Shown: one piece after another, positions 3,867 to 5,599 of the stretch
Layout of the letters: every line of letters starts with the position of its first letter
Position numbering within the stretch: the first letter of the stretch is position 1
Assembly (NCBI GenBank): GCA_965367815.1
Contig: CBDUKN010000001.1
Span: 64,001-128,000, forward strand
Length of the DNA stretch: 64,000 bases
Direction: 5' to 3'
Source of the DNA: an uncultured Thermoprotei archaeon
GTDB taxonomy: Archaea > Thermoproteota > Thermoprotei > Thermofilales > B15-G2
Notes under the pieces: model-generated
Told to the model about the DNA's origin: nothing
Seen by the model: only the letters and a program-made list of their open reading frames with translations
The model's database searches: none
Program-made: the position numbers and the translations under genes

Positions 3867-3881
3867 AGAAAGCTATATATA
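3867..3881 (+). promoter_or_regulatory. BRE/TATA promoter for the 3904-4054 RNA
   Basis: AGAAAG followed by CTATATATA, centred ~26 nt upstream of the first paired G (3904). Confidence 0.6.
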
Positions 3882-3903
3882 TTTTGGAAACAAGTATAAT
3901 AAC

Positions 3904-4054
3904 GCCGGGCGCGGGAGCACGCCCCGCCTAAACCCACTAAGTCCCGCGGCTCCGGTACCACGCCGAGACCCCTCCCTTCGGGGAGGAGTCCCGGCAAGGT
4001 ACCGAAGCACGCAGGGACTCAGTGGGGAACGGTGGGGCTTAAACCGCGCCCGGC
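3904..4054 (+). ncRNA. Unclassified 151-nt GC-rich rod-shaped structured RNA with a BHB-like motif near its base
   Basis: Perfect 11-bp terminal helix 3904-3914/4044-4054, near-continuous pairing up to a C(UUCG)G tetraloop at 3977-3980, sharp GC island in AT-rich DNA, TATA upstream and T6 tract immediately downstream. Function unknown. Confidence 0.8.
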
Positions 4055-4060
4055 TTTTTT
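4055..4060 (+). terminator. Oligo-T archaeal terminator
   Basis: TTTTTT directly after the RNA's closing helix. Confidence 0.55.
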
Positions 4061-4070
4061 ATTAACGGAA

Positions 4071-4721
4071 TTAAAGTTCAGAAGAGAATATGTTTTTGAC
4101 ATATTTGCAATAATAACTAACAGCGTCTACTTCTATTATCTTTAATTCATCTACGTTAATTATGTAAATGTAGTCTATTTTTGCTTTTATTAGTTCGTCA
4201 AGCGATATAGGTGGAGACTTATAGTAATTATCTAGTAGCATTTTTATTTTCTTTAATTCTTCTACATTTCTCTGCGAACTAGGTAAAGTGAATTCATAGG
4301 GTATTTGAAGAATATGATAAGGTGGAGTTGCTAGAATGAATATGTCTGCATATTTACTGTACCTAGCTATTTTGCTTATTTCGCGTGCGCGCCTATAGTT
4401 AACTGGGTCTACCGAATTAGATGGAGGTACAAATCCCGTTTCTATTTCAACAATATATTTGAGGCCGTCTTTTTCGGCGTAAATATCGCAAACAAGGCTT
4501 TCTTCAAGCTCCTTTTCGACTTCAACATTCATTCCTTTGTTCAAGAGATATTTAGCTATAATAAACTCCATAACTGAATGATTCGATTTAACGAAGCCTT
4601 TCATCCACATTTCAACGAGCTTAGTTTTGATTTCTTCAAGTTTCTCGACTACTTTATGGTCAAGCTGACCATCGAGTTTAGTCATTATTAAGTCAAGGTC
4701 GTCGGCTAAGGTCTTAGGCAT
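4071..4721 (-). CDS. Hypothetical protein with putative PD-(D/E)XK restriction-endonuclease-like fold
   Basis: VEVEKEL...LVCDIYAEK..KYIVEIETG pattern (E...D...ExE) resembles the PD-(D/E)XK core. Confidence 0.6.
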   Translation of the reverse strand: MPKTLADDLDLIMTKLDGQLDHKVVEKLEEIKTKLVEMWMKGFVKSNHSVMEFIIAKYLLNKGMNVEVEKELEESLVCDIYAEKDGLKYIVEIETGFVPPSNSVDPVNYRRAREISKIARYSKYADIFILATPPYHILQIPYEFTLPSSQRNVEELKKIKMLLDNYYKSPPISLDELIKAKIDYIYIINVDELKIIEVDAVSYYCKYVKNIFSSEL

Positions 4722-4999: not shown

Positions 5000-5599
5000 A
5001 TGCAGACAGAGACTCTAGTGAGCTTAATCAGCATAATTGTTACCATTATAGGGTCAACAGCATCAATAGCCTACTGGCTAGGCAAAAAATTTGCTGAAAT
5101 AGATAAAAAGTTTTTTGATGAAATAAATAGGAAATTTGGTGAGATAGATAAGAAATTTAATGAAATAGATAAAAAGTTCAGTGAAATAGATAAGAGGTTT
5201 GCCGAGATAAATGAAGAGTTCAGTAAGGTTCATGAAGAAATAAAAGCTATTGATAGGAAAGTAGAGAGCATTACTAAAGCTACTCGAGACCAACTAGAAT
5301 TCTTCTCAGAATTCCTAGGATTCAGAGGTATCTTTACAGACAAAGACGTAGCCTTCGTTAAAAGCGAACTACAAAGACTCTCAGCTCGAGCAGTAAACCC
5401 TCTAACTAAAGAAGAATTAAAGAGAATTAGAGAGCTCATCGAAAAAGACGAGCTAACATTCGAGGAAGCAGATGAGCTCAGAGAACTAGCGAGAAAATTC
5501 GTCGACGAATACTGGCACATACCAGGTGCACACAAACTACTCATATATGCATCAATAATGAGAGGAATAGCCATGAGAAAACAGAAAACAACCAAGTAG
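5000..5599 (+). CDS. Membrane-anchored coiled-coil protein with FxEIDKK heptad repeats
   Basis: N-terminal hydrophobic helix, 7 heptad repeats, helical C-terminus. Confidence 0.75.
   Translation: MQTETLVSLISIIVTIIGSTASIAYWLGKKFAEIDKKFFDEINRKFGEIDKKFNEIDKKFSEIDKRFAEINEEFSKVHEEIKAIDRKVESITKATRDQLEFFSEFLGFRGIFTDKDVAFVKSELQRLSARAVNPLTKEELKRIRELIEKDELTFEEADELRELARKFVDEYWHIPGAHKLLIYASIMRGIAMRKQKTTK
5090..5239 (+). repeat. Intragenic tandem 21-bp repeats (7 degenerate units plus one extra codon)
   Basis: TTTGCTGAAATAGATAAAAAG / TTTGGTGAGATAGATAAGAAA / TTTAATGAAATAGATAAAAAG / TTCAGTGAAATAGATAAGAGG etc. Confidence 0.85.

Follow-up and report, generated by a model that had tools for sequence, protein, structure and literature searches.

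Stand-alone GC-rich islands in the AT-rich genomes of hyperthermophiles are characteristic of HgcC-type orphan RNA genes. The element described here is an island of this kind, lying at positions 3904-4054 of a 64,000-nucleotide window (the whole stretch of DNA analysed, positions 64,001 to 128,000 of contig CBDUKN010000001.1 in assembly GCA_965367815.1) from an uncultured Thermoprotei archaeon. It is predicted to fold into a single unbranched hairpin, hereafter the rod, and is very probably a stand-alone plus-strand RNA gene starting at about 3904. What it shares with HgcC-type genes is an isolated GC island recognisable by composition and fold; it differs from them in having no Rfam match to them, in being a single unbranched structure, and in being far more stable than the other islands of its genome.

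The first-pass annotation of the window had proposed a further comparison, namely that a motif of the bulge-helix-bulge (BHB) type near the base of the rod is cut by the archaeal splicing endonuclease and that the released RNA is sealed into a circle. According to the accessible part of PMC7714728, known BHB substrates include tRNA and rRNA introns, the processing stems of pre-16S and pre-23S rRNA, the cbf5 mRNA intron, and an intron in the 5'-untranslated region of Haloferax HVO_1309. The rod would resemble these in that RtcB would close its excised segment into a circle. The known substrates, however, sit in host RNAs whose joined exons are the product, or yield an rRNA circle that is the precursor of a known RNA, whereas the "exons" of the rod would measure only 17 and 12 nt, the excised rod would be the main product, and the motif is not the predicted fold. 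A further likeness is offered by the permuted signal recognition particle (SRP) RNA of Thermoproteus, which the accessible text of PMC4731332 describes as a structural RNA, neither tRNA nor rRNA, matured by BHB cutting and circularisation in a member of the Thermoprotei, as proposed for the rod; that RNA is a recognisable SRP RNA, whereas the rod has no significant similarity to the SRP RNA of its own genome. Circular non-coding RNAs, some of unknown function, have also been catalogued in Sulfolobus by circRNA-seq, which places such molecules among hyperthermophilic Thermoprotei; in the accessible part of that report (PMC3326292), C/D box RNAs, RNase P RNA, and rRNA intermediates make up most of them, no 150-nt rod is among them, and the term BHB does not occur in the main text. 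No stand-alone gene with a BHB-excised rod as its main product was found in the open-access literature searched, as far as its accessible text extends.

Fold, conservation, and distribution of the rod

The island stands out sharply from its surroundings, with GC fractions of 0.72 and 0.68 in the 100-base windows spanning 3900-4049 against 0.26-0.31 on the flanks, in a host genome of 2.45 Mb with 38.6% GC and 159 GC islands. Its plus strand folds into one unbranched hairpin with a minimum free energy (MFE) of -117.1 kcal/mol; 200 dinucleotide shuffles averaged -67.2 kcal/mol (standard deviation 4.2), giving a z-score of -11.9, and none of the 200 was as stable. At -0.70 kcal/nt, the rod is the most stable per base among the genome's non-tRNA GC islands of at least 90 nt, and it is single-copy, with no paralogue found in the genome. 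The single rod described by the first-pass annotation is thus confirmed by the GC windows, the MFE, and the shuffles, and every pairing it had listed (3904-14/4044-54, 3921-28/4031-38, 3933-45/4014-26, 3953-59/3998-4004, and 3971-76/3981-86, closed by the UUCG loop 3977-3980) is present both in the sequence and in the MFE fold, the stem 3933-45/4014-26 containing one A.C mismatch. The internal loops measure 6x5, 4x4, and smaller, and the 37 bases left unpaired on the plus strand are rich in A (19 A, 9 C, 5 U, and 4 G). The rod is made up of the following parts:

3904..4054, plus strand: predicted 151-nt unbranched hairpin RNA, from its MFE, its shuffle z-score, and the same fold in the sister species
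3904..3914, plus strand: 5' strand of the basal stem, pairing with 4044-4054; 11 bp long here, against 8 bp in the sister species, and invariant in sequence between both
3915..3922, plus strand: 5' side of the basal asymmetric loop, conserved; in an alternative register 3915-3918 is one strand of a 4-bp helix and 3919-3921(22) a 5' bulge
3921..3928, plus strand: 5' strand of the second stem, pairing with 4031-4038; first 5 bp invariant
3929..3959, plus strand: 5' arm of the variable middle of the rod, whose partner arm is 3998-4030; most compensatory changes fall here
3960..3997, plus strand: conserved apical module, comprising an A-rich 2x2 loop, a GCCG/CGGC helix, a C.A mismatch, and a C(UUCG)G hairpin (loop 3977-3980)
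4037..4043, plus strand: 3' side of the basal loop; pairing of 4037-4040 with 3915-3918 is possible and would leave 4041-4043 (AAA) as the 3' bulge
4044..4054, plus strand: 3' strand of the basal stem, from the predicted fold

A BLAST search over 41 relatives recovered the rod in two genomes, this one included, the homologue, 74% identical, lying in the one other genome of this genus. The sister-species homologue (L002:974-1124, minus strand) forms the same rod, with an MFE of -107.5 kcal/mol and a z-score of -13.2. When the two pairing ladders were aligned rung by rung, 41 pairs were identical, 10 had changed on both sides with pairing kept, and 1 had changed on one side; 10 further positions were paired in one species only, and 2 pairs were inserted. 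Because the ladder alignment reveals compensatory pair changes, the structure of the rod is under selection. These double-sided changes, 10 of the 52 pairs aligned pair to pair, all lie outside the basal module, in the remaining rod; within the basal module, 8 bp of the basal stem and the first 5 bp of the second stem are invariant and the basal loop is nearly so; the apical module is conserved to a similar degree. Along the middle of the rod, the sequence varies freely while the helix defects recur at matching positions in the two species; the sister species pairs all of the 4x4 loop 3929-32/4027-30. One DNA run contains a strain variant with four changes within the rod, three in loops, including C>G at 3920 on the 5' side of the basal loop, while A3968G turns an A-U pair into G.U on the plus strand; no pair is broken by the listed changes, which cover 20 of the 22 substitutions of that contig.

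Wider searches returned the same two genomes. A covariance model (R1) built from the two sequences, which holds 36 of about 57 pairs and is weak for distant relatives, matched two genomes among the 41 of the order and, likewise, two among 120 of the class, these being the two already known. When 401 genomes of the phylum were scanned with a loop pattern, this genome was the only one among the matches listed, the sister not appearing there. A pattern scan of metagenomes gave 15 loci, of which four are true copies identical to one or the other known type and 11 are chance matches in high-GC contigs, and a gapped pattern over genome contigs gave the sister record and three bacterial matches in a conserved protein-coding gene that were judged to be chance. 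Two scans of viral contigs produced 19 loci and no rod, with one 35-nt match at E 0.0029, and phage and plasmid collections held no rod match. The first-pass annotation had called for a search for homologues and for a look at whether they conserve the BHB register; the register can be formed in the sister species, and phylum-level scans yielded no further homologue. In everything searched, the rod is confined to one uncultured Thermoprotei genus of hydrothermal sediment.

The rod belongs to no RNA family recognised by the models applied. Rfam 15 gave no match at gathering score in the 64-kb window, and at E up to 10 only sub-threshold miRNA-like hairpins appeared around the locus, the best being mir-1294 on the minus strand (28.6 bits against a cut-off of 90), in agreement with the earlier statement that SRP, RNase P, 5S, tRNA, H/ACA, and C/D hallmarks are missing. 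Two identities were considered separately and rejected. SRP RNA is ruled out by an ordinary, unpermuted SRP RNA on contig 34 (164.8 bits, full model), which matches the rod only at blastn E 0.76; and a reduced RNase P RNA is countered by the absence from the rod of an unpaired stretch for the pseudoknot, of Rfam similarity, and of synteny with the RNase P RNA genes of relatives. The 5S rRNA has its own locus, at contig 18:56371-56490 (minus strand). Archaeal H/ACA guides have a sizeable pseudouridylation pocket together with a K-turn or K-loop, and they end in a 3' ACA; the rod has loops of 6x5, 4x4, and smaller, it terminates 3' in the basal stem and a U-run with no ACA tail, and no Rfam match supports such an assignment. 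The basal loop reads AGUA/GAA in the sister species and AGCA/UAA here, and the loop E or bulged-G consensus is AGUA opposite GAA; since the version in the window differs at two positions, the likeness serves as a lead only.

Promoter, strand, and proposed role

Two further features flank the rod on its plus strand:

3869..3884, plus strand: BRE/TATA-type promoter of the rod gene (transcription factor B recognition element and TATA box); best 16-mer 35 nt before 3904, in a block conserved in the two-species alignment
4055..4060, plus strand: T6 run directly 3' of the rod, the likely transcription stop

The upstream regions of the genome's tRNA genes share a clear common BRE/TATA block at a nearly fixed distance, and a promoter matrix was built from 43 of them, in which the median distance from motif start to gene is 35 nt (interquartile range 34-35). 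With this matrix, the plus side of the rod scores 10.0 at -35, a value reached by 0.7% of random 55-mers, and that of the sister rod 12.8 at -32, reached by 0.08%; tRNA genes have a median score of 10.8 at -35. The minus side scores 5.2 here and 5.1 in the sister, values that 10% of random 55-mers reach, and at no tRNA-like distance. The genome's tRNA genes end in T-rich tracts similar to the run at 4055-4060, and the sister rod is followed by a pyrimidine-rich tract instead of a clean T-run, like those behind some tRNAs. The private BRE/TATA element and T6 terminator ascribed to the island by the first-pass annotation are therefore upheld by a tRNA-trained matrix at tRNA distance and by the T-run. 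The C(UUCG)G loop lies on the plus strand in both species, and no conserved open reading frame covers the rod, a 68-aa frame being present here and none of at least 50 aa at the sister locus. The tRNA-type promoter at tRNA distance, the T-run, the plus-strand UUCG, the A-rich unpaired bases, and the lack of a conserved reading frame are the grounds on which the island is assigned, with considerable confidence, to a plus-strand RNA gene.

The analysis shows the fold, its conservation, the promoter, and the strand on which that promoter lies; from these we infer expression, RNA ends, a protein partner, and a function, as follows. The product may be a linear and stable hairpin RNA that binds protein, a reading preferred here in tentative terms. 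It would be a structural RNA of about 151 nt acting through two sequence-conserved modules, one formed by the basal stem and the asymmetric loop and the other by the apical C(UUCG)G hairpin with its A-rich 2x2 loop, while the intervening rod, in which only pairing and defect positions are conserved, would hold the modules apart. The mature RNA would most likely keep the invariant basal stem and would hence be linear, and the basal loop would be a recognition site rather than a cut site; an invariant basal module would be explained by sequence-specific recognition and not by an endonuclease that reads structure alone. Two conserved ends on a freely covarying rod are the layout of protein-carrying RNAs, and if expressed as predicted, this would be a new structural RNA under strong selection in uncultured hyperthermophilic archaea, one for which no relative is known.

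Several observations weigh against this reading, most of them concerning the strand. The plus strand carries five A.C mismatches and one G.U in each species, which is odd for a plus-strand RNA, and because these A.C mismatches become G.U on the minus strand, the minus strand folds better, at -130.6 kcal/mol here and -123.7 kcal/mol in the sister, an advantage of 13.5 kcal/mol in this genome, with five G.U pairs on the minus strand against one on the plus strand. By the yardstick of the genome's known RNAs, among which 29 of 33 tRNAs, as well as the SRP RNA, fold better on the sense strand, the rod therefore looks like a minus-strand RNA. The caution of the first-pass annotation about the strand is to that extent justified, with five A.C mismatches counted rather than its four. 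In addition, the comparative basis consists of two species and one strain variant, none of the 23 sequencing runs listed for the locus is on record as RNA, and the basal loop can formally adopt a BHB in both species.

The strand observations would be accounted for if the minus strand were the functional one and the rod formed the structured mRNA 3' end of the convergent 216-aa gene, serving as a stability element or bidirectional transcription barrier, with the plus-strand promoter secondary. In each species the minus strand is the more stable (-130.6 against -117.1 kcal/mol here and -123.7 against -107.5 kcal/mol in the sister), five plus-strand A.C mismatches become G.U on it, and known RNAs of the genome favour the sense strand; moreover, the rod begins 16 nt here and 66 nt in the sister past the stop codon of the same orthologous gene, on that gene's strand, synteny is broken on the rod's other side, and no T-run intervenes between the stop codon and the rod. 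This explanation is nevertheless improbable. The minus side lacks a promoter-like site at a fixed distance (5.2 and 5.1, as in 10% of random sequence), and several defects are conserved as defects rather than wobbles, one A.C becoming A.A in the other species, another A.C a bulged C, and a C.A an A.C. The unpaired bases of a minus-strand RNA would be U-rich, the strain variant A3968G gives G.U on the plus strand and C.A on the minus strand, and the 216-aa gene, matched at E <= 0.001 in 24 of the 41 genomes of the order, has no rod downstream outside this genus. The minus-strand loop CGAA is not known to belong to any class of stable tetraloops, which also counts against a minus-strand RNA. The construction of the rod's defects almost solely from A and C is unexplained and keeps the minus-strand explanation alive at a low level of likelihood; a mismatch pattern of A.C only on the transcribed strand is an oddity that deserves a direct look. 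It is very improbable that the locus acts as DNA, as an imperfect palindrome serving as a cruciform, recombination, or replication site with no RNA product. Compensatory changes in an inverted repeat would maintain a DNA hairpin equally well, and both strands fold strongly; against this stand a GC island in an AT-rich genome, like those of its tRNA, SRP, and 5S genes, a tRNA-type promoter at the right distance, the T-run, the UUCG loop, and the conserved bulges, and the rod is single-copy and belongs to no repeat family, nor did viral contigs, phages, or plasmids yield a match to it.

The basal loop and the circular-RNA proposal

The competing account of the RNA product is that of the first-pass annotation, in which the endonuclease would cut both bulges of a BHB in the basal loop, RtcB would seal G3921-A4042 into a circle, giving a rod with both of its ends closed, and the two flanks would be joined as a mini-hairpin of about 29 nt. 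The geometry on which it depends is available. A scanner that accepted bulges of 2-5 nt between helices of 3 bp or more found the basal-loop site as its only match on the plus strand of the rod here, and the same site plus one weak extra match in the sister. The alternative register of GAGC with GCUU, flanked by the bulges ACG(C) and AAA, can form as the annotation described; G3921-A4042 does span 122 nt, and the 5' bulge is indeed 3 or 4 nt depending on register, both forms occurring in both species. The 4-bp central helix 3915-3918/4037-4040 consists of G.U, A-U, G-C, and C-G here and of C-G, A-U, G-C, and U.G in the sister, bordered by an outer helix of 11 bp (8 in the sister) and an inner helix of 3 bp in the strict form or of 6 bp (4 in the sister) with the 4-nt bulge. 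In the one other species available the register is kept, one of its pairs having changed on both sides and another on a single side, although two sequences are too few for a judgement of conservation, and all three species differences in the basal loop leave the 4-bp helix pairable (12:137 from G.U to C-G and 15:134 from C-G to U.G).

The energetics run the other way. The register with the 4-nt 5' bulge costs 5.0 kcal/mol here and 4.7 in the sister over the best fold, and the strict register, with two 3-nt bulges and a C bulged from the inner stem, costs 8.4 and 5.9 kcal/mol. The pairs of the BHB helix have probabilities of 0.0003-0.0013 here and 0.0004-0.013 in the sister at 37 C, and of at most 0.03 and 0.08, respectively, at 80 C, so that the BHB is not a stable predicted structure of the rod. 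Loops randomised in the same frame offered some BHB-like register in 4.9-16% of trials and a strict one in 0.75-2.8%. As a crude control, a BHB was found near the ARAGORN coordinates in 9 of 18 of the genome's tRNA introns, and in strict form in 5. The BHB reading is accordingly neither shown nor refuted: its canonical geometry exists in both species, and the predicted fold is a different one, lower in energy by 5-8 kcal/mol.

Whether the basal loop nonetheless works as a BHB, the 122-nt circle being the functional product of the gene and the gene the first stand-alone archaeal one of this kind, is considered possible but rather doubtful. In its favour are the sole scanner match on the plus strand here, found at the same site in the sister in both the strict and the 4-nt forms, the rarity of the strict form in random loops (0.75-2.8%), and the pairability of the helix through every loop difference between the species. 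The genome has two genes with an EndA (tRNA_int_endo) domain, at 102.4 and 46 bits, and an RtcB gene at 609.9 bits; the presence of EndA and RtcB discriminates nothing because it is general in archaea. Two EndA-domain genes do suit the heteromeric splicing endonuclease of TACK archaea, which the accessible part of PMC7714728 reports to accept various bulge lengths, and ARAGORN called introns in 19 of the genome's 44 tRNAs. On the opposite side, besides the energy cost, the low pair probabilities, and the 4.9-16% of random loops with some BHB-like register, the covarying pair 12:137 fits the best fold equally well, cutting would throw away the basal stem, which is invariant and more conserved than any other part of the rod, and the loop bases are conserved although an enzyme reading structure would not need this. 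None of the 23 listed runs is on record as RNA that might bear on a circle, and four DNA-contig runs aligned over the locus contained no joints. An Rnl3-type ligase (TIGR01209), which would circularise RNA end to end, was not found in this genome, and the sister has a sub-threshold partial match. A linear, protein-binding RNA is therefore still the reading adopted here, in the tentative sense given above. Were the basal loop truly cut, known BHB processing would be extended to a dedicated circular-RNA gene, and the rod would offer a small, clean substrate with which the relaxed specificity of the heteromeric splicing endonuclease could be studied; were the circle real, it would have been found in a lineage with rebuilt RNA processing, which has no detectable ribonucleoprotein RNase P and has a HARP-type enzyme.

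Neighbouring genes, RNase P, and other elements

Two protein-coding genes were characterised alongside the rod:

4071..4721, minus strand: convergent 216-aa gene with a restriction-endonuclease-like fold and no known family; its orthologue adjoins the rod in the sister species too
contig 2:69693-70223, minus strand, outside the 64-kb window: PIN_5 (HARP-type) gene, a strong match

The 216-aa protein has no Pfam or NCBIfam match, and its alignment contains the invariant residues D79, E92, and E94. Its confident AlphaFold model (pLDDT 91.6) gave weak Foldseek matches, the best at E 0.002, to restriction-endonuclease-like folds, namely a CdiA-CT nuclease, AF1548, HindIII, XisH, and SfsA, and the protein looks like a member of an unnamed family of PD-(D/E)xK-type nucleases. 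The 500 nt downstream of 24 of its 25 matches in the order (one running off its contig) were inspected, and no rod was seen outside this genus. In a single genus of relatives (L037-L039, L041, and L044), a conserved element of about 50 nt with C-box- and D-box-like motifs, recognised by eye, lies some 80-140 nt past the 216-aa orthologue on the opposite strand; this is probably a C/D box sRNA whose gene converges on that of the protein. Within the gene itself, 4344-4376 and 4402-4451 are matched in two DNA runs by contigs that come from other organisms and are much deeper (depth 222 and 14-29; 2-9 differences); these stretches are probably parts of the gene family that are conserved in abundant relatives.

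The RNase P components of the order show an unusual pattern in this genus. The RNase P RNA (RF00373) was found in 34 of 41 genomes of the order and in neither this genome nor its sister, Rpp29 (PF01868) in 39 of 41, these two being the only misses, and Pop5 (PF01900) in 34 of 41, again in neither of the two. PIN_5 (PF08745) was found in 3 of 41 genomes, namely this one, its sister, and one other that also has RNase P RNA and Rpp29. Genome completeness is 99.4% for this genome and 85% for the sister. The accessible part of PMC12153264 places HARP in the PIN_5 cluster and associates the Rnl3 ligase with HARP. Because the RNA, Rpp29, and Pop5 are unmatched in both genomes while PIN_5 is present, the genus may rely on a protein-only RNase P, the ribonucleoprotein form being seemingly missing. 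A link between the rod and RNase P cannot be claimed from this, since the rod's genus is one lineage only. Alongside the RNase P pattern, it was noted that the genome's tRNA promoters stand at a nearly fixed distance from their genes.

Other elements of the genome were recorded in passing. The Rfam models for 16S and 23S rRNA found neither RNA in the assembly, and a GC island at the start of contig 4 presumably corresponds to the 23S 3' end, which it resembles by its AGUACGAGAGGAAC motif. At contig 21:40337-40434 and contig 3:56833-56935, two more islands of hairpin-like form, each about 100 nt and rich in GC, are embedded in AT-rich sequence; they have no Rfam match at E up to 0.01, are candidate small RNAs, and have an architecture unlike that of the rod. 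Beyond the 216-aa gene, a 199-aa protein encoded at 5000-5599 on the plus strand has only weak matches to coiled-coil families, and it combines an N-terminal hydrophobic stretch with a coiled coil carrying a repeated EIDKKF-like motif.

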